Assembly (NCBI GenBank): GCA_943359335.1
Contig: CALRHC010000002.1
Location: 1,290-65,289, forward strand
DNA from: Candidatus Yanofskybacteria bacterium
GTDB taxonomy: Bacteria > Patescibacteriota > Minisyncoccia > JACQLN01
DNA length: 64,000 nt
Reading direction: 5' to 3'
The notes beneath the pieces are model-generated. The model saw nothing but the letters and a program-made list of their open reading frames with translations, made no database searches and had not been told where the DNA came from. Shown here in pieces: positions 882 through 50,821 of the stretch. Numbering within the stretch: position 1 is the first letter of the stretch; each line of letters starts with the position of its first letter. Made by a program: the position numbers and the translations under genes.

Positions 882-1898
882 TTAAAAATTAAATACTGGA
901 CGCAATAACCCTGCAGCAACTAAGCTATTAATTAAATTTAAAATTCCAAAAAATATAACAATTAATCCAGCTGCTTTAAAGAAAACACCTGAATTACTCT
1001 TGTTAAAACTAAGAGAACTAAAACTTAAAAGTGAAAGCACGGGCAACGTCCCTAAAACAAAAGAAAACATTGTTAAACCACCCGTCCAAAAACTACCTGT
1101 TGTAAGTGTATATATTTGCATTGATTGTGTAAAACCACAAGGCAAAAAGAAAGTAGCTATACCAATTAAAAATGGCGTTAATGTATGGTTAATATTTTTT
1201 AAGCCGTGTATGCGCTTGCCCAAAAAAGCCGGTAGGGTTGGCTGAATTTTTTTAGCCCAAGGAAAAACATCAAGCAAATTTACACCCAAAACAAGAAGAA
1301 TTATTGCCACCAAAAAACTAAGTATAAAAATACCTGTGCCGCCTAATTGGAAAGAAGCACCAGCGATGCCAATAATTCCACCCAACAAAAAGAAAGAAAT
1401 TAAACGCCCAACGTGAAACAATATCTGAGGTTTAACCTTTTCACCTTCTTTGGCAAAATTTGCCGATATAGAAAGCACTAAACCACCCACTACCGCCATA
1501 CAAGTGGAAACAGAGGCTATAAGACCAATAACAAAAGCTGTGCCAAAACCAACATTAGAACTATTAACTAAATTTACTAACCCAATCTTTTGTAGAAAGA
1601 TAAAAAATAAAATAAAACCCAAAGCTACTGGACCGGCAATTAAAAAATCTCGCCACTTAACAGAGCGTTTTTCTTTTTCTAACAAAATTTCGTAACCGTG
1701 CAGTTTAACAACTTCGGTTAAATCTTTGACAATGTGTTCCGCAGTTTTATCGCCAAAATCTCCCGAAACTTCTACACTCAAATCTTTAAGCGAAGCCTGA
1801 GCAGAGTCCACTTCGGATAATTCTTTAAGCTCGGACTCTATTAAAACAACGCAGGCTTTGCAATGCATTCCTTTTACATGGAATTTATATTTTTTCAT
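882..1898 (-). CDS. heavy-metal-associated (HMA) domain fused to CcdA/DsbD_2-like polytopic membrane protein
   Basis: N-terminal GMHCKAC metal-binding motif; multiple TMs with conserved Cys (STCMAV, LPCGFTQ). Confidence 0.65.
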   Translation of the reverse strand: MKKYKFHVKGMHCKACVVLIESELKELSEVDSAQASLKDLSVEVSGDFGDKTAEHIVKDLTEVVKLHGYEILLEKEKRSVKWRDFLIAGPVALGFILFFIFLQKIGLVNLVNSSNVGFGTAFVIGLIASVSTCMAVVGGLVLSISANFAKEGEKVKPQILFHVGRLISFFLLGGIIGIAGASFQLGGTGIFILSFLVAIILLVLGVNLLDVFPWAKKIQPTLPAFLGKRIHGLKNINHTLTPFLIGIATFFLPCGFTQSMQIYTLTTGSFWTGGLTMFSFVLGTLPVLSLLSFSSLSFNKSNSGVFFKAAGLIVIFFGILNLINSLVAAGLLRPVFNF

Positions 1899-7772: not shown

Positions 7773-10097
7773 TTAAACAATAAAATTTATAAACTTATCC
7801 TTAACAAATATAACTTTCTTTACTGGCGAAGTAAGATATTTAGAAATATTTTCGTTATTTTTAGCAGCTTCTTCAACATCTTTTTGCAAAGAGTCCACTG
7901 GCATTTTAATAACCGCGCGCATCTTAGCGTTTACTTGCACCACTATATCTACTTCTTTATCTTTAACCAGTTTAGAATCAAACTTTGGCCAAGGCGTTAT
8001 ATGAATAGATTTTTTATTCTTTAAAATTTCTCTAAATATCTCCTCGCTCATATGAGGCGCAAAAGGAGCCATGAGTTTAGCCAAAACTTCTAGTTCGTTT
8101 TTACCAACAGATTCCATATTAGCTTCAAATTCATTTAACAAAACCATCAAAGCCGAAACCGAAGTGTTATAACTCAAATTTTCTAAATCCTCTGTTACTT
8201 TTTTAATAGTCTTATTTAGAACTATTTGTAACTTAGGATTATCGTTTTGAGATTTGAGATTTAAAGTTTGAGATAAATTCCACACTCTATCTAAAAATCT
8301 GGTTATTCCTTTTATTCCACCGTCTCTAAAATCACCACCTTGATCAAACGGACCCAGAAACATTAAATACATTCTTAAAACATCAGCGCCATAATTTTTA
8401 ATGTATTCGTCGGGGTTAATAACATTACCCTTGGATTTAGACATTTTTGCGCCATCTTTTATCAATAATCCATGGGCACGGAATTTTTTAAATGGCTCGT
8501 CAAAATTGGTTAAACGTAAATCTTTAAATACCATCGCTAAAAATCGAACGTATAAAAGATGCAAAACAGAATGTTCTGCTCCGCCAATATACATATCTAC
8601 CGGAAACCATTTCTTAGTTACAGCTTGATCCCAAGCATATTTTTTATCTTTAACCGAAGCATAGCGCAAGTAATACCAAGCCGAATCTAAAAATGTATCG
8701 GAAACATCGGTTTCTCTTCTAGCTACTCCTTCGCATTTAGGACATTTAACTTTAAAAAACTTTTCGTCGGCCGCTAAAGGTGATTCGCTTGTACCGGTTG
8801 GTCTAAAGTTTTTTATGTAAGGTAACCTAACTGGTAAATCTTTTTCTGGCACCGGCTGCCAACCACATTTCTCACAATGAATCATTGGAATAGGTGCACC
8901 CCAATAACGTTGGCGAGAAACTAACCAATCCCGCAATCTAAATTGTGTTGTTTTTTTGCCCACACTCTTTTTTATCCCCTCCTCAATTGAAACGAGCGGC
9001 GCACCGCTTATCGCTAATTTAAATTTATTAGCGAATTCTAAATCGCGTTCATCGTGCGCTGGCACTCCCATAACTGCGCCTGTGCCATAACCTGCTAAAA
9101 CATAATCCGAAATCCAAACTGGAACCTTTTCGTTATTAGCTGGATTAATTGCAGAAATACCAGAAAAAATTCCGGATTTATCCTTATCTTGATTTTGATC
9201 GCGAGTAACTCTATCGGAAAGAGCTTTAGTAATATATTCTTTTACTTCTTCCGAAACTTGCCAACCAATATCTAACCAAAACTTTGCTTTCTCGGGCGAA
9301 ATTGCAATAAAGGTTACACCGAAAATTGTATCTGGGCGCGTGGTAAAAACTTCTACAAAATGTTTACCATCTTTTTGCCCTGTAACATCTGTTAAACGAA
9401 ATTTAATAGAAGCACCTTCCGATTTACCTATCCAATTTTTTTGAGCAATTTTTACTTTTTCACTCCAATCGATTTTATCTAAACCCTTTAAAAGCTTATC
9501 GGCATATTTAGTTATTCTAAAAAACCACTGCTCTAGTTCTTTTTTAATAACTTTTGTACCACATCTTTCACATTCACCACTTATAACCTGTTCGTCGGCT
9601 AAAACAGTTAAACAAGAAGGACACCAATTAACCGCAGATTTTTTGCGGTAAGCCAAACCTTTTTTATAAAGCTGTATAAAAATCCATTGTGTCCATTTGT
9701 AATATTCTGGGTCGTAAGTTTCTAATTTCTCATTCCAAGCAAAACCATTACCTATCATTTGTAGTTGGCGGTAAAAATTTTTCTCGGAAACTCTAGCTTG
9801 ATCCATTGGATGCTCGCCAATTTTTAAAGCATAGTTTTCGGAATGTATCCCAAAACCATCAAGCCCAATGGGCTCAAAAACATTAAAACCTTGCATTCTC
9901 TTAAAGCGACCATGAATATCACTCCCCACAAAAGCGTACATATTACCCACGTGCAATCCTTCGGCCGAAGGATACGGAAACATCATTAGGTTATAGAACG
10001 GATTTTTGGCATTTTTTAGATCTGGTTCATAAACCTTCTCAGCCAGCCATTTCTTATGCCACTTAGATTCTACTTTTTTATGATTATATTTGGCCAT
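7773..10097 (-). CDS. leuS: leucyl-tRNA synthetase
   Basis: 774 aa, HVGN(HIGH-type) and KMSKS motifs, C-terminal ...KVIFV..INFIV. Confidence 0.95.
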   Translation of the reverse strand: MAKYNHKKVESKWHKKWLAEKVYEPDLKNAKNPFYNLMMFPYPSAEGLHVGNMYAFVGSDIHGRFKRMQGFNVFEPIGLDGFGIHSENYALKIGEHPMDQARVSEKNFYRQLQMIGNGFAWNEKLETYDPEYYKWTQWIFIQLYKKGLAYRKKSAVNWCPSCLTVLADEQVISGECERCGTKVIKKELEQWFFRITKYADKLLKGLDKIDWSEKVKIAQKNWIGKSEGASIKFRLTDVTGQKDGKHFVEVFTTRPDTIFGVTFIAISPEKAKFWLDIGWQVSEEVKEYITKALSDRVTRDQNQDKDKSGIFSGISAINPANNEKVPVWISDYVLAGYGTGAVMGVPAHDERDLEFANKFKLAISGAPLVSIEEGIKKSVGKKTTQFRLRDWLVSRQRYWGAPIPMIHCEKCGWQPVPEKDLPVRLPYIKNFRPTGTSESPLAADEKFFKVKCPKCEGVARRETDVSDTFLDSAWYYLRYASVKDKKYAWDQAVTKKWFPVDMYIGGAEHSVLHLLYVRFLAMVFKDLRLTNFDEPFKKFRAHGLLIKDGAKMSKSKGNVINPDEYIKNYGADVLRMYLMFLGPFDQGGDFRDGGIKGITRFLDRVWNLSQTLNLKSQNDNPKLQIVLNKTIKKVTEDLENLSYNTSVSALMVLLNEFEANMESVGKNELEVLAKLMAPFAPHMSEEIFREILKNKKSIHITPWPKFDSKLVKDKEVDIVVQVNAKMRAVIKMPVDSLQKDVEEAAKNNENISKYLTSPVKKVIFVKDKFINFIV

Positions 10098-12717: not shown

Positions 12718-13767
12718 TTAGGAATTTTGGCTTTCTTCATGATGATGTCCAAAATCTTTTATAATTTCTACTAAAACTACAGCTACCGGCACCGAAAGAA
12801 TTATACCTGGTATACCAAATAACTCACCGCCAATAAGTAAAGCAATTATAACCACTACAGGATTGAGTCCAATAGCGCGGTTCATTATATTAGGCACAAA
12901 AACATGATTTTCTAATTGGTGGACAATAGTGTAAATAAGAATAACCCAAAGAGCAACAATTGGAGATTTCAAAAGACCCAAAATAATAGCTGGTACCGCA
13001 GCAAGCACTGGGCCAAATATTGGAATAATTTCCATCATGCCCGCAATTAAAGCCAAAAGAACACTGTGTTTTATACCAAAAATTAAAAGTCCGATATAAA
13101 TTAAAACGCCTACAATTATACTAAGTATAAGTTGAGCTTGCAGCCAACGGCCAAGTTTATATTGCGCACGCGACCAAAGATTTAAAACGTAGGGCTGTTT
13201 TTCTTTTGTTGTAACTGCTCGTAAAAAAATACTAATACCATGCTCTTGAGCAGCCAAGTAAAAAGAAATTACAATAACAAAAACCGCAGAAATAACTCCA
13301 CCAAAAATTCCTGTTGTTGCTCCAAAAATATTTCCAGAAATATTAGCAAGATCATTACTTACGGCAACAAGGTTATCTTGAATTTTGTTTAACAACTGTT
13401 CGTACTGCGGAGCAGAGTCTCTGATGACTTTAAAAAAACCATCTACTTTATCGAAGTACAAAGGAACAACCAAAGAAAGATTATCTAACTCTTCCGATAA
13501 CGGAGAAATTATAAAATATAATACTGTTCCTAAAAATAAAAACAATAAAAGATAGATAGCAAAAACACCGAGCGTTCTGGGTATACCTTTGCTTTGTAAA
13601 TAATTAGCTAGCGGAGTAATGGCAGCTGCTATTATAATGGAAAACAAAAGTACCGCTACTACATCGCGGATCAAATATATGAGTGCCAAACCCAGCACAA
13701 TAGCAAAAGCACGGAGTAAAGTTTCCGTGTTTATGCTGATGTGTGTATGAGATAACGGAGATTTCAA
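12718..13767 (-). CDS. AI-2E family transporter (UPF0118/PerM-like)
   Basis: 8-TM profile, 349 aa, typical PerM architecture. Confidence 0.75.
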   Translation of the reverse strand: MKSPLSHTHISINTETLLRAFAIVLGLALIYLIRDVVAVLLFSIIIAAAITPLANYLQSKGIPRTLGVFAIYLLLFLFLGTVLYFIISPLSEELDNLSLVVPLYFDKVDGFFKVIRDSAPQYEQLLNKIQDNLVAVSNDLANISGNIFGATTGIFGGVISAVFVIVISFYLAAQEHGISIFLRAVTTKEKQPYVLNLWSRAQYKLGRWLQAQLILSIIVGVLIYIGLLIFGIKHSVLLALIAGMMEIIPIFGPVLAAVPAIILGLLKSPIVALWVILIYTIVHQLENHVFVPNIMNRAIGLNPVVVIIALLIGGELFGIPGIILSVPVAVVLVEIIKDFGHHHEESQNS

Positions 13768-15035
13768 AATTTTAATATCCCTTCAAAGCCTGCCTTGTCC
13801 TTAAGCGGCCCAATTACGGCCAAGTTGAGATTCTTATCTTGGAAGATATCTTCGGCCACATTCTTTATGTCGGCCAAAGTAACTTTATCCATCATACTGA
13901 ACTTTTGTTCAACTGTCAATACATCATTGGTTAATACCTCCTGAAGGCCGAAAAATGAGGCTAAATCATCGGAAGCTTCTAATCCTAGTAGCGTTCCACC
14001 TCTTATAAAATCCTTAGCTTTTTGGAGCTCTTTTTCCTCTACTCCATTGGCTTTTATCTTTTTTAGTTCTGCCATTATGGCTTCCACTGCTTCAGCAACT
14101 CTAGCAGTATCAACACCGGAACTTACTTCAAAGTAACCGTGATCTAGTGAAAGTGTAGAAGACGCACGAATGTAATAGCCTAAACCAAGTTCATCGCGAA
14201 TTCTAATAAACAATCTAGAAGACATGCCTCCACCTAAAATTGTGGCAAGCAATCCCAAAGCCCAGCGCCGTGGGTCGAACATATTATAAGCCCGAGCACC
14301 TAAAATTATATGGCACTGATCGGTTTCTTTATAAAAAACTTTTATCTGTGGCGCACTCTGAGATTCCACGCATGGAAGTGGTTTTGGTACATCGCCTTCT
14401 TTTACAGTACTAAAATATTTGTGTACTTTTTCTTTTGCGTTTTCAGCAGTAATGTTTCCCGCAACTACCACGACTACACCCTTTGAACGATAATGCTTAT
14501 CCATATAATCTATAAAATGTTGTCGGTTTATAGAACGTATAACTTCTTTTCTGCCGGCAATATCCCAACCTGCGGGTTGATCGCCGTATAATAATTCTTC
14601 AAAAAGATCACCAATCTTTCGCATTGGTGTATCTTCATACATATCTATTTCGCCAATAATTACACCGCGTTCTTTTTCTATTTCTTCTTGTGGAATTGTA
14701 GAATTTAAAAATATATCACTTACAACATCAAAAGCTAAATCGGAATGTTTGCTGTCTACCTTAACCCAATAGCCTGTTAATTCTTTATCTGTAAAAGCGT
14801 TATACGCCGCACCCACTGCATCTAGTTCGTGGGCAATATCCGATTTCCCTGGGCGTTTGGTAGTGCCTTTAAAAAACATATGCTCCAAAAAATGCGAAAT
14901 ACCATTTATATCTTTTGTTTCGTAACGCGAACCGGTGCCTGCCAAAACAAGCAAGGTTAAAGTTTGAGTTCCTTGCATAGGAACATAAATTGCGCGTAGT
15001 CCATTTGGCCAAACATCTTTTGTAAAATTATGCAT
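13764..15035 (-). CDS. M16 family zinc peptidase (insulinase-like)
   Basis: HFLEHMFFKGT inverted zinc motif HxxEH. Confidence 0.85.
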   Translation of the reverse strand: MHNFTKDVWPNGLRAIYVPMQGTQTLTLLVLAGTGSRYETKDINGISHFLEHMFFKGTTKRPGKSDIAHELDAVGAAYNAFTDKELTGYWVKVDSKHSDLAFDVVSDIFLNSTIPQEEIEKERGVIIGEIDMYEDTPMRKIGDLFEELLYGDQPAGWDIAGRKEVIRSINRQHFIDYMDKHYRSKGVVVVVAGNITAENAKEKVHKYFSTVKEGDVPKPLPCVESQSAPQIKVFYKETDQCHIILGARAYNMFDPRRWALGLLATILGGGMSSRLFIRIRDELGLGYYIRASSTLSLDHGYFEVSSGVDTARVAEAVEAIMAELKKIKANGVEEKELQKAKDFIRGGTLLGLEASDDLASFFGLQEVLTNDVLTVEQKFSMMDKVTLADIKNVAEDIFQDKNLNLAVIGPLKDKAGFEGILKF

Positions 15036-29605: not shown

Positions 29606-29964
29606 GGGGATGACTTGAATCGTCAAGGAACGTATCGATAAGAATTCGAAGCTGAGGTATACCACAAACTCATAAAACTGGTTACAAATAGTAAGTGCAA
29701 ACTTATTTAACGCTAAACCAGCGTTTGCCGTAGCTTAAAATCTATCGGCCATCGCCCTGTTTTTGCCCAAGAAGACAGTGTGCGGTGTTAACCTTTTGGG
29801 CTGCTGTCTAATGAAGGCGAACTTTAGACTTAAGACAATCGCCGAAAGTTTAACTTTTTTCACCATTCTTTAAGGGTTAAACTTAAACCAAGAATGGTTA
29901 GGCTTCGTAGCAGTTCAATCGAGAAATTTTTTGCACGCGGGTTCAATTCCCGCCATCTCCACCA
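29606..29964 (+). ncRNA. ssrA: tmRNA (transfer-messenger RNA)
   Basis: 5' GGGGATG pairs with CATCTCC-A-CCA 3'; T-arm GGTTCAATTCC; tag ORF GCA AAC TTA TTT AAC GCT AAA CCA GCG TTT GCC GTA GCT TAA (ANLFNAKPAFAVA) at 29697-29738. Confidence 0.9.
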
Positions 29965-39628: not shown

Positions 39629-40249
39629 TTAAATATTATTTAGAGTCTGCCATTTTTTACGAACAATTATAGGCCATTCGCCTTTTTTAGCCTTCCACCA
39701 TTTTAGCCAATTTATTGTTGATTCGTCTGATGGATAACCAGAACCAAAATCTCCGTATGTCTTTTTTAAAATTTTAACATGTTTTTCACGTTCCGACTTA
39801 GCTAAAATAGATGCCGCAGCTACTGCAACGTTATGACTATCCATTTTATTAGCGCCTATAATTTTGTGATCTTTGTTTAAACAAAACGAGCCAATAGAAG
39901 CACAATATTTTTTAATACCACCCCCAGAAACTGGTGCGTCCAAATATGTTCGGTGAGGTAAAAAATGATTAATTAAATTAGCTGAATGTTTAATTTCTAA
40001 ATTGTTTATAGAATATTTATCTATATCGGTTGGGCTAATTTTTATAACTTTATAACCATGCGCTATTTTTTTAATTTCCCCAACAATACTTTCGCGTTTT
40101 TTAGCTACAAGCAGTTTTGAATCTGTAACTCCAAGATCGTTAAGCTTATCTATTAAATAGTCTTCTTCGGAAATTAAAAACCCACCCAAAAATAAAGGGC
40201 CGATTACACAACCTCTACCAGCTTCGTCTATACCCAATATTTTATCCAT
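39629..40249 (-). CDS. rnhB: ribonuclease HII
   Basis: LGIDEAGRGCVIGPL; TATAAT 6 nt upstream of ATG (leaderless-like). Confidence 0.9.
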   Translation of the reverse strand: MDKILGIDEAGRGCVIGPLFLGGFLISEEDYLIDKLNDLGVTDSKLLVAKKRESIVGEIKKIAHGYKVIKISPTDIDKYSINNLEIKHSANLINHFLPHRTYLDAPVSGGGIKKYCASIGSFCLNKDHKIIGANKMDSHNVAVAAASILAKSEREKHVKILKKTYGDFGSGYPSDESTINWLKWWKAKKGEWPIIVRKKWQTLNNI

Positions 40250-40280
40250 TGAGTAATTATAGCTTAAACAACAACAGCTA

Positions 40281-40350
40281 AGCCTCGCTAGTGAATTTCC
40301 GACTTATCTTTTTGATGCTAAAAGCATCTTTCGGAAATTCTACTACGGGG
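40281..40350. repeat. repeat family F4 copy 1: approx 70-nt imperfect long hairpin (GAATTTCCGA...GATGCT-AAA-AGCATC...TCGGAAATTC) upstream of rnhB promoter
   Basis: RC aligns approx 85% with 50447-50518; compensatory change in inner stem. Confidence 0.6.
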
Positions 40351-40359
40351 AATAAAAAA

Positions 40360-40377
40360 CCCTCCGCTTTGGGAGGG
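40360..40377 (-). terminator. hairpin CCCTCC-GCTTT-GGGAGGG after 40390..40656 gene
   Basis: minus-strand T-run TTTTTTATT. Confidence 0.6.
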
Positions 40378-40389
40378 CTAAGAAGAAAA

Positions 40390-50365: not shown

Positions 50366-50446
50366 ACTTTGCTCCTTTGTTTAAATTAACTTGCCTAAAA
50401 TCAATGATTCTGATATTATCAAACCTACTTATTAAACGCAATTATG

Positions 50447-50518
50447 CCCCGTAGTAGAATCTCCGAAAGATGCCTTTGGCATCAATTGGATACAGATCGG
50501 AAATTCACTAGCAGGGCT
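50447..50518. repeat. repeat family F4 copy 2, immediately upstream of TATAAT of rpsT
   Basis: GATGCC-TTT-GGCATC inner stem (compensatory vs copy 1 GATGCT/AGCATC). Confidence 0.6.
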
Positions 50519-50557
50519 ATAATTTTGTAGCTAAACGCTACGCTTATAGACAAAATT

Positions 50558-50821
50558 ATGCCTATCAAAAAATCGGCCAAAAAGGCCTTAAGACAAACAG
50601 AAAAAAGAACCAAAGTTAATAAAGACAGAAAGTCTAATATTAAAGATTTGGAAAAGAAGCTGGTTAAGGAAATTTCGGCTAAAAACAAAAAAGAGGCTGC
50701 TCAAGCTTTGAGTAATTTTTCACAAGCTTTAGATAAAGCTGTAAAAAATCACGTACTTCTTAAGAACACAGCTTCCCGCCAAAAATCACGCTTTCAAAAA
50801 GCTATAAACAAAATCAGTTAA
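50558..50821 (+). CDS. rpsT: 30S ribosomal protein S20
   Basis: MPIKKSAKKALRQTEKRTKVN. Confidence 0.9.
   Translation: MPIKKSAKKALRQTEKRTKVNKDRKSNIKDLEKKLVKEISAKNKKEAAQALSNFSQALDKAVKNHVLLKNTASRQKSRFQKAINKIS

Follow-up and report, generated by a model that had tools for sequence, protein, structure and literature searches.

Hairpins before rnhB and rpsT in a Candidatus Yanofskybacteria contig as probable small insertion elements of Patescibacteria

Two similar hairpins of about 70 nt, called F4 here, stand upstream of rnhB and rpsT in a 64,000-nucleotide stretch of Candidatus Yanofskybacteria bacterium (assembly GCA_943359335.1, contig CALRHC010000002.1, positions 1,290 to 65,289; the whole stretch is referred to as the window). 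What brings the same hairpin in front of these two genes? A preliminary description, made from the letters of the window, regarded it as a candidate promoter-associated structured element or regulator binding site. Our analysis led to a different answer. Both copies are probably small, non-autonomous insertion elements of Patescibacteria with hairpin ends, resembling repetitive extragenic palindromes (REPs) and the ends of IS200/IS605 insertion sequences, and the decisive result was the comparison of filled and empty sites at frr and two other genes.

The two copies and their homologues

The two hairpins and their variable tips are located as follows.

40282..40350, minus strand: copy 1, hairpin-only form, without the segments B and C and the small hairpin described below (fold and covariance model, 72.2 bits)
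40314..40328, minus strand: variable apical stem-loop of copy 1, GATGCT-TTT-AGCATC (sequence, fold and pair statistics)
50447..50517, plus strand: copy 2, long left-end hairpin CCCC-GTAGTA-GAATCTCCGA ... TCGGAAATTC-ACTAGC-AGGGC (fold; covariance model, 77.5 bits)
50469..50483, plus strand: variable apical stem-loop of copy 2, GATGCC-TTT-GGCATC (7/8 helix pairs changed on both sides in 20 homologues)

The alignment of the two over about 70 nt, as first described, was reproduced: the reverse complement of 40281-40350 and the sequence of 50447-50518 had a mean column identity of 83% over 118 columns, flanks included. The 27-nt 5' arm (CCCCGTAGTAGAATYTCCGAAAGATGC) occurred exactly twice in the window at up to 3 mismatches, with 0.00 expected from 100 shuffles. 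The covariance model, run with filters off over the 64 kb, returned the same two copies only, and the next, unrelated match reached 14.5 bits, so F4 is a family of two in the window. On the strand of the downstream gene the long hairpins of the two copies folded at -25.0 and -28.1 kcal/mol (z = -4.7 and -4.2), and none of 200 shuffles was as stable as either. The swap in the inner stem was indeed compensatory, with GAUGCU/AGCAUC in copy 1 against GAUGCC/GGCAUC in copy 2 (U-A to C-G). For the outer stem the earlier account was right only in part: both copies fold, but the T-to-C change at 50461 in copy 2 is uncompensated and gives a C.A mismatch.

When 185,579 species genomes were scanned with an exact pattern, 21 matches came up, at most 2 per genome. 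Seven were true copies, all in metagenome-assembled genomes (MAGs) of the candidate phyla radiation (CPR) labelled Parcubacteria, Minisyncoccia, Saccharibacteria or just "bacterium". A pattern scan of metagenomes added 10 further copies. Since exact-arm patterns bias such scans, loci were additionally collected through protein homologues, and overall about 25 homologues are known from Patescibacteria MAGs and metagenomes, at most 3 per genome (loci are cited by L numbers). The protein-anchored loci included diverged members with compensated changes in the seemingly invariant 10-bp helix GAAUUUCCGA/UCGGAAAUUC, namely CCAA/UUGG in L040 and L020b, GAAUUUUCAA/UUGAAAAUUC (UUUUCAA/UUGAAAA) in L043a and GAACUUUUAA/UUAAAAGUUC in L043b. 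Among 20 hairpin sequences, 95.1% of the cells were paired, 11 pairs had changed on both sides and 7/8 apical-stem pairs covaried; no shuffle out of 500 scored as high, and slid controls fell to 24-50% pairing. The further copies thus keep the compensatory pattern, and selection on the hairpin structure, suggested before from two copies, is supported by covariation across about 20 homologues.

The base of the hairpin is constant (CCCC-GTAGTAG ... CACTA(A)C-(A)GGGC, with two bulged A residues). Above it follow the 10-bp helix, an A-rich asymmetric loop and a freely covarying apical stem of 6-8 bp; one copy has an insertion of ~90 nt, the upper half in L041 is swapped for a short GC hairpin, and the arms of the various copies lie 24 to ~100 nt apart. 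The varying distance between the arms, and their covariation, led us to reject a dimeric transcription-factor operator. UNCG tetraloops, considered as a mark of RNA, were rejected as well, the loops being triloops or pentaloops. Nearly all copies (25/26) are co-oriented with the downstream gene. The sole copy that is not, L043b (L043, 19949-20025, plus strand), is a diverged F4 hairpin between smpB and ssrA, antisense to the transfer-messenger RNA (tmRNA) and overlapping its 5' GGGG. In L039 (630-711, together with ~40 nt upstream) the F4 5' arm is broken after CCCGTAGTA by a mini-hairpin, CCCCGAAGTAGATGCTTTGCATCACTACGGGG; this looks like an element inserted in an element, or a tandem short form.

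Rfam, searched with the whole window at the gathering threshold, reported only tmRNA and tRNA-Leu and none at the element, and at E<=10 the region 50380-50620 gave noise only. No viral copies were found in IMG/VR, where the pattern gave chance matches only and the covariance model had no hit. The searchable literature on CPR RNA motifs, the S20 leader and Parcubacteria palindromic repeats yielded no description of the element.

Insertion between the first and the second codon

Copy 2 is the left end of a longer unit. Its parts, and the promoter in front of it, are given here.

50391..50419, plus strand: native sigma-70-like rpsT promoter, TTGCCT-17-TGaTATTAT (promoter scan; equidistant motif in L040 and L041)
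50440..50446, plus strand: segment A, AATTATG, left flank or target, with the putative original rpsT ATG at 50444-50446 (by way of the empty sites of other genes)
50447..50560, plus strand: full-length element, ~114 nt (conserved as a block before many genes; absent as a block from orthologous frr loci)
50514..50528, plus strand: segment B, GGGCTATAATTTTGT, containing TATAAT (complementary both to A + CCCC, the left junction, and to C, the right end)
50527..50541, plus strand: small right-end hairpin, GTAGC-TAAAC-GCTAC (consensus fold; one compensatory pair)
50550..50560, plus strand: segment C, ACAAAATTATG, right end, whose ATG at 50558-50560 is the present rpsT start (open reading frame for S20)

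Since AATTATGCC occurs at the two junctions in the window, the boundaries of the element are movable over as much as 9 nt. In 16 copies the hairpin is followed by a common stretch of ~45 nt, made of GGGCTATAATTTTGT, GTAGC-N5-GCTAC, GCTCATAG and ACAAAATT-ATG, and the stem base of the small hairpin (GTAG..CTAC) is the same as that of the long one. The final ATG was the start codon of a co-oriented gene, just 3' of ACAAAAT(T), in all 16 full units, and all 16 had an ATG immediately 5' of the element's CCCC as well, often within a longer direct repeat of C. This flanking repeat measures 3 to 11 nt and always includes ATG; a classical target-site duplication was rejected since its length is not fixed. 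Positions were accordingly not random, every full-length copy examined abutting a start codon. Full units stand at rpsT (window, L040, L041, L025, L028), at ftsZ after ftsA (L007/L038, L031, L036, L037), and at frr (L021), comM (L012) and the genes of an FNR-like oxidoreductase (L029), an RHH protein (L035), a BNR-repeat protein (L020) and membrane or unknown proteins (L017, L034). These genes are functionally unrelated and share no common pathway, and on this ground, together with the missing Rfam match, a metabolite riboswitch or other curated cis-regulatory RNA was rejected. Half of the distinct target genes (5/10) begin with ATGCC, a preference that would fit target pairing with the GGGC of B.

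That the unit is an insertion was clearest at frr. In L021 the gene is filled (...gctagttttattcatATG, then the unit, CTCCGTAGTAG ... ATAGACAAATTATG, then GAAACACAAGAATTC): ...ttattcatATG is followed by a 110-nt unit ending in ACAAATTATG, and this by GAAACACAAG. Three relatives, L057 (the closest to L021), L055 and L056, whose ribosome recycling factors (RRF) are 94%, 88% and 86% identical, are empty and read ...ttatt(gtt/cat)(at)ATGGAGAC... Alignment of L021 with the three gave colinear flanks and one clean gap of ~110 nt, and the flanks of L057 are almost identical to those of L021. A similar relation was observed at two other genes. For the BNR-repeat gene after holB, the unit of L020 lies directly behind ...aaaatcATG, and L055 and L056 are empty, with 0-3 nt from the holB stop to the ATG of the gene. 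For a membrane-protein gene, L020b has a hairpin-plus-TATG version with ATG on both sides, and L055 is empty with a homologous upstream flank. In each of the three cases the element-free orthologues have their start codon where the left ATG falls in the alignment. At the level of sequence, these comparisons indicated that the unit is an insertion placed exactly 3' of the native ATG. Segment A at rpsT would, by analogy with these empty sites, be the native translation start region.

The protein is unchanged because the terminal ATG of the element serves as the new start codon; in fact, the N-terminus of S20, encoded by rpsT at 50558-50821, is MPIK with or without the unit. Distant rpsT loci (RpsT at most 59% identical) had no unit. 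In the window the original ATG opens an upstream open reading frame (uORF) of 28 codons. A conserved upstream peptide starting at the left ATG was rejected, since the spacers of 24-30 nt are not multiples of three and the uORFs stop after 15-46 codons without a pattern. Several RnhB (218-236 aa) and RRF (203-208 aa) homologues are 10-30 residues longer than others, and such gene calls may begin at a decoy ATG that an inserted element left upstream. In L021 (~1212-1400, minus strand) the orthologue of the L020b gene has a degenerate unit, a short hairpin CCCCGACCTCATGTCGGGG followed by TTTTATAGCTATTCGC...GCTCATAGATAAAACAGGCATG, which suggests repeated insertion, or decay, at one gene start.

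The pattern of similarity among copies is that of a spreading element. The variable middle of the unit at rpsT in L028 was 0.97 identical to that at the FNR-like gene in L029, from the same metagenome; L035 (RHH gene) and L036 (ftsZ) reached 0.93, L017 and L034 reached 0.90, and the closest middle to copy 2 was that of copy 1 in the same window, in a comparison set without L040. Between genomes, the rpsT copies were only 0.42-0.62 identical in the middle, with 0.84-1.00 in arms plus platform (0.88-1.00 in the arms). For the same genome pairs the third codon positions of rpsT (0.39-0.48) and the upstream 60 nt (0.51-0.59) were randomised. Copies at different genes in one sample were thus closer to each other than copies at the same gene across genomes.

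Pairing within the unit and the readings it allows

Segments B and C were complementary over 11-14 bp in 14/14 units (-11 to -19 kcal/mol), with 96.8% of the cells paired. One double substitution was found (TTCGT/ACGAA in L020), and one-base indels were concordant in 4/4 cases (L020, L021, L007, L037). In the ftsZ lineage of L007 all three segments have changed together, to GATATG in A, TATATT in B and AATATG in C. Furthermore, TATAAT has become TGTAAT independently in L012 and L040, by which a G-T/G-U pair is kept and the A needed by a -10 box is lost. The truncated rpsT copy of L041 has lost the arms and kept the hairpin base with the B/C platform.

What could such complementarity be for? 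In the IS200/IS605 family, which moves by single-strand "peel and paste", the Y1 (HUH) transposase attaches to subterminal hairpins of single-stranded DNA, and a guide beside the hairpin selects, through pairing, where to cleave and where to insert; these elements have a fixed orientation and insert 3' of a short target, which is kept as the left flank while the right end closes with an equivalent sequence (PMC6006769). F4 shares much of this. Full units have subterminal hairpins at both ends, a long one on the left and a small one (GTAGC..GCTAC) on the right, and hairpin-only copies have the left one only. Orientation is single and the right end is ..TTATG. Three filled/empty comparisons put the element directly after (T)ATG, a position compatible with insertion 3' of a target and equally with a 3-bp duplication. 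At the sequence level the internal B is complementary to both junctions and the three co-vary. On our reading, the full form inserts directly 3' of (T)ATG, in practice a start codon, in the orientation of the gene. The native ATG remains as the left flank, and the terminal ATG of the element becomes the new start. B would pair with the target or left junction (AATTATG+CCCC) and with the right end (AATTATG+CC), and through such pairing on single-stranded DNA the element would find the places where it is cleaved and where it inserts. The Y1 (HUH) transposase would be supplied in trans, as with IS200/IS605 ends and REPs. An excised circle, with the right end joined to the left, would read ...ACAAAATTATG followed by CCCCGTAG... 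We infer both the single-stranded mechanism and the enzyme acting in trans from this analogy.

The differences from IS200/IS605 are also plain. The left hairpin is ~70 nt long instead of 20-25 nt, the guide-like complementarity covers 11-14 nt instead of 4 and is located 3' of the left hairpin, the target is a start codon whose ATG the element restores, and no transposase is linked to the element. REPs, on the other hand, are palindromic extragenic sequences in which GT[AG]G stands 0-2 nt 5' of a basal stem that is paired throughout, with an optional second stem above a bulge (PMC3733652), and they are thought to be non-autonomous and moved by a Y1 enzyme (PMC3733652; PMC6006769). The F4 hairpin likewise has GTAG, then TA (2 nt), then a 10-bp stem, GAATTTCCGA/TCGGAAATTC. 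It differs from REPs in that its GTAG is itself paired with a 3' CTA(A)C and its stem base is AT-rich where that of REPs is GC-rich. Moreover, F4 copies are few, stand at gene starts and form no clusters or bacterial interspersed mosaic elements (BIMEs), whereas REPs measure 21-65 nt, have many copies, are often arranged in inverted pairs, lie mostly downstream of genes and flank their own transposase gene. No REP-associated tyrosine transposase (RAYT) flanked by the F4 hairpin was seen in the sequences examined, where the Y1 genes carry other palindromes. Solo IS605 stem-loops linked to genes have been described in Borrelia (PMC2775950).

F4 also differs from a classical MITE (a miniature inverted-repeat transposable element of DDE-transposase origin), having no pattern of terminal inverted repeats with fixed duplication; its flanking repeat varies in length and its orientation is almost uniform. 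Small non-coding hairpin elements known from bacteria are co-transcribed with their neighbours and more conserved than their flanks, and some carry promoter or translation signals that make their insertion harmless. They have terminal inverted repeats, a fixed target duplication (for example TA), insert in either orientation and are intergenic. F4 is like them in its lack of coding capacity, its long hairpin and its conservation beyond that of the flanks, and unlike them in that its full form sits between the first and the second codon and supplies the start codon. Judged from the sequences, what appears new relative to the known systems is the long, co-varying guide-like segment and the insertion between codons 1 and 2 with replacement of the ATG.

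The same complementarity could also be explained at the RNA level, as a cis-acting 5'-leader switch of translation in which B hides the AUG in C, A competes for B, and mobility was a mere route of acquisition; a protein or ligand at the conserved GUAGUAG/CACUAAC base would tip the balance between A:B and B:C. For rpsT the native promoter lies upstream of the whole unit and would transcribe ~114 extra structured nucleotides, and in this RNA B could pair over the new AUG and bury it. Most full units have a comparable sigma-70-like promoter 13-45 nt upstream, for instance TTGCGC-16-TGcTACAAT at three ftsZ copies, so that the unit is very probably transcribed. The B:C helix includes the AUG in all 14 units, the TGTAAT variants keep the pairing through G-U where a -10 box would be crippled, the arms are far better conserved than the neighbouring rpsT codons, and the truncated copy of L041 retains just the hairpin base and the B/C platform. 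In addition, the predicted ensembles with free and sequestered AUG were mostly within 1-3 kcal/mol of each other, with a probability of a free AUG of 0.00-0.59 (median ~0.08). In folding models the arrangement resembles leaders that occlude a start codon or Shine-Dalgarno (SD) sequence, such as ribosomal-protein leaders and RNA thermometers, with an AU-rich helix that would bury the initiation codon and a competing upstream strand. The left end of IS200 itself has a terminator-like hairpin and a stem-loop occluding the tnpA start.

Against such a switch stand the downstream genes, which form no coherent regulon, the presence or absence of the unit among very close relatives, and the greater likeness of copies at different genes in one sample than of orthologous ones. 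Moreover, the places taken by hairpin-only copies (behind terminators, before a leaderless promoter, once antisense to the tmRNA gene) are not mRNA leaders, no Rfam family matched even at E<=10, and the counts of G-U versus A-C (14 vs 10) do not decisively favour the sense strand. We therefore regard a host-selected switch as an unlikely explanation; it might have arisen as an exaptation.

The TATAAT within B bears on a third reading, close to that of the preliminary description, in which F4 is a promoter-associated DNA element, acting as activator site or operator, or as a substitute for the -35 of the adjacent GCTATAAT -10. The positions of the hexamers relative to the hairpins are as first given: the hairpin of copy 2 ends at 50517 and TATAAT occupies 50518-50523, and the hairpin of copy 1 ends at 40282 with the rnhB TATAAT at 40261-40256 on the minus strand. 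Leaderless genes of the window typically have GCTATAAT as their -10 context, and the element carries exactly this; in L032 a well-formed leader with GGAGGG and a GTG start comes after hairpin plus TATATT; and hexamers similar to a -10 box follow shortly after copy 1, L043a and L026. Between hairpin and -10, however, there are 0, 4, 9 or 21 nt, and the arms vary in spacing and covary, unlike a dimeric DNA-binding site. One rpsT orthologue (L041) has no arms, three genomes keep the rnhB -10 without a hairpin, two units have TGTAAT, and no -35 match was found. A role as regulator site or as substitute for the -35 is consequently very improbable.

The earlier assignment of the TATAAT beside copy 2 as the -10 of rpsT was not supported either. 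The hexamer belongs to the element: it lies within the inserted block of ~114 nt that stands before many unrelated genes, and its counterpart in L012 and L040 is TGTAAT, even though GCTATAAT fits the local -10 context. The element's GCTATAAT may act as an outward promoter, which in our model would give a leader of ~30 nt with a 5' hairpin and a free AUG; the same segment before the GGAGGG-GTG start of L032 fits this option, and the two TGTAAT variants indicate that such a function would not be obligatory. B may thus work outward as a -10 promoter or, as a strand of the RNA, mask the new start codon.

Several points weigh against a mobile element, the explanation that we prefer. No transposase was found in the 64-kb window. 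Relatives do possess Y1_Tnp (PF01797) genes, two in L055, one of them adjoining the empty frr site, and one in L029 at 4.5 kb from a unit. The hairpins flanking the L029 gene stand before GGTAGAAT and AGTAGGG, which recall the GTAGTAGAAT of the F4 hairpin; but these genes are flanked by other palindromes, so that no autonomous partner was found. Copies are few (2 in 64 kb), in contrast to the classical REPs or to bursts of MITEs, and the presence of rpsT and ftsZ copies in several diverged genomes could mean long-term retention under host selection. The patterns of our scans demanded exact arms, and arm conservation among those matches is therefore partly by construction. The absence of the unit as one block could, strictly, also result from precise deletion in three lineages, which would still imply a mobile element. 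Because the element also ends in ATG, a 3-bp target duplication is indistinguishable from insertion 3' of the target. Finally, none of the hairpin-only copies, copy 1 among them, stands at an ATG or has a flanking direct repeat; they lack a clean empty-site comparison, the flanks at rnhB being too diverged to set boundaries.

As a side observation, each of the three Y1_Tnp genes, which are IS200/RAYT-like (L055, 9217-9937 and 17879-18650; L029, 5210-5915), has its own perfect flanking palindrome, which recurs inside the transposase reading frame, for example TGTTCAACATTGAATGTTGAACA at 9217, 9708 and 9915.

If F4 is a mobile element, a bolder version can be offered tentatively, and we give it less credence than its opposite. 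F4 would be a mobile leader homing to start codons: an internal guide of 11-14 nt (GGGCTATAATT..) would pair with AATTATG(CC), the element would integrate between codons 1 and 2, repair the gene with its own ATG, perhaps supply its own -10, and rewire the 5' untranslated regions (UTRs) of essential genes (rpsT, ftsZ, frr), with a choice of target reprogrammable by co-variation of guide and ends. Were a mobile F4 confirmed, the tiny genomes of CPR bacteria, usually called repeat-poor, would host an active miniature element that lands harmlessly at the first codon boundary of essential genes, an unusual answer to the question of where to insert safely when hardly any intergenic DNA is available. 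The recognition by base pairing known from IS200/IS605 would be extended by a long internal guide co-varying with target and right end, and this guide could in principle be reprogrammable. For annotation, the element would be a source of decoy ATGs upstream of genes, of gene calls extended at the N-terminus and of seeming promoters that are its own. The 5' UTRs of rpsT and ftsZ would be longer by ~114 nt of strong structure, which may alter expression.

rnhB and the hairpin-only copies

Copy 1 lies between a terminator and the promoter of rnhB, both on the minus strand.

40358..40379, minus strand: intrinsic terminator of the upstream open reading frame (terminator scan; its T-run ends 3 nt before copy 1)
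40250..40263, minus strand: leaderless-type promoter of rnhB, GCTATAAT-TACTCA, with the ATG at 40249 (conserved in 5 genomes)

The copy ends ~20 nt before the GCTATAAT-TACTCA-ATG of rnhB. Five genomes have GCTATAAT-N6-ATG before rnhB (CGTTATAAT in L041), and three of them (L040, L041, L042) have no hairpin. The suggestion that copy 1 stands near a -10 box of rnhB is thus plausible as to the box, but this box is independent of the element, being kept in the three hairpin-free relatives. A diverged hairpin with compensated helix changes occupies the corresponding site before rnhB in L043, whose RnhB is 75% identical. Of the 61 large open reading frames of the window, 10 have an SD-like motif and 20 have TAnnnT 5-8 nt before the ATG, typically as GCTATAAT-N6-ATG; the scarcity of the former and the frequency of the latter suggest that many mRNAs of this organism are probably leaderless.

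Four other hairpin-only copies (L043a, L024, L026, L039) begin 0-3 nt behind the T-run of a terminator. The hairpin-only copies might represent left ends on their own, or else a minimal form, similar to REPs, that has a T-rich target (TTAT, followed by the element). Could the hairpin itself be a terminator or attenuator, or belong to an independent small RNA, a transcript of ~100 nt from the upstream promoter to a U-rich tail (UAUAAUUUU)? The promoter just upstream and a U-rich tract 3' of the hairpin in 6/8 sequence contexts would agree with this. Neither copy in the window was called by the terminator scan, though, and the tail is interrupted by A residues and absent in L020b and L043b, unlike that of an intrinsic terminator; hairpin-only copies have no promoter and lie directly behind another terminator, and the B:C and A:B complementarity and the exact abutment on ATG would go unexplained. 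We hold this to be highly unlikely.

In L040 and L041, the 100-120 nt between the terminator and the TATAAT of rnhB contain unrelated, GC-rich, hairpin-forming inserts that differ from each other, and the site behind the terminator upstream of rnhB seems to be a hotspot for small insertions. L040, a close relative, further contains an insert at 13326-14838, made of bAvd and reverse-transcriptase (RVT_1) genes, a cassette like a diversity-generating retroelement (DGR), between genes that are adjacent in the synteny of the window. The tmRNA gene of the window (29606-29964, plus strand, 106.8 bits) directly follows smpB and, unlike that of L043, has no adjoining F4 hairpin. The tRNA-Leu(CAA) gene lies at 357-441 on the plus strand.

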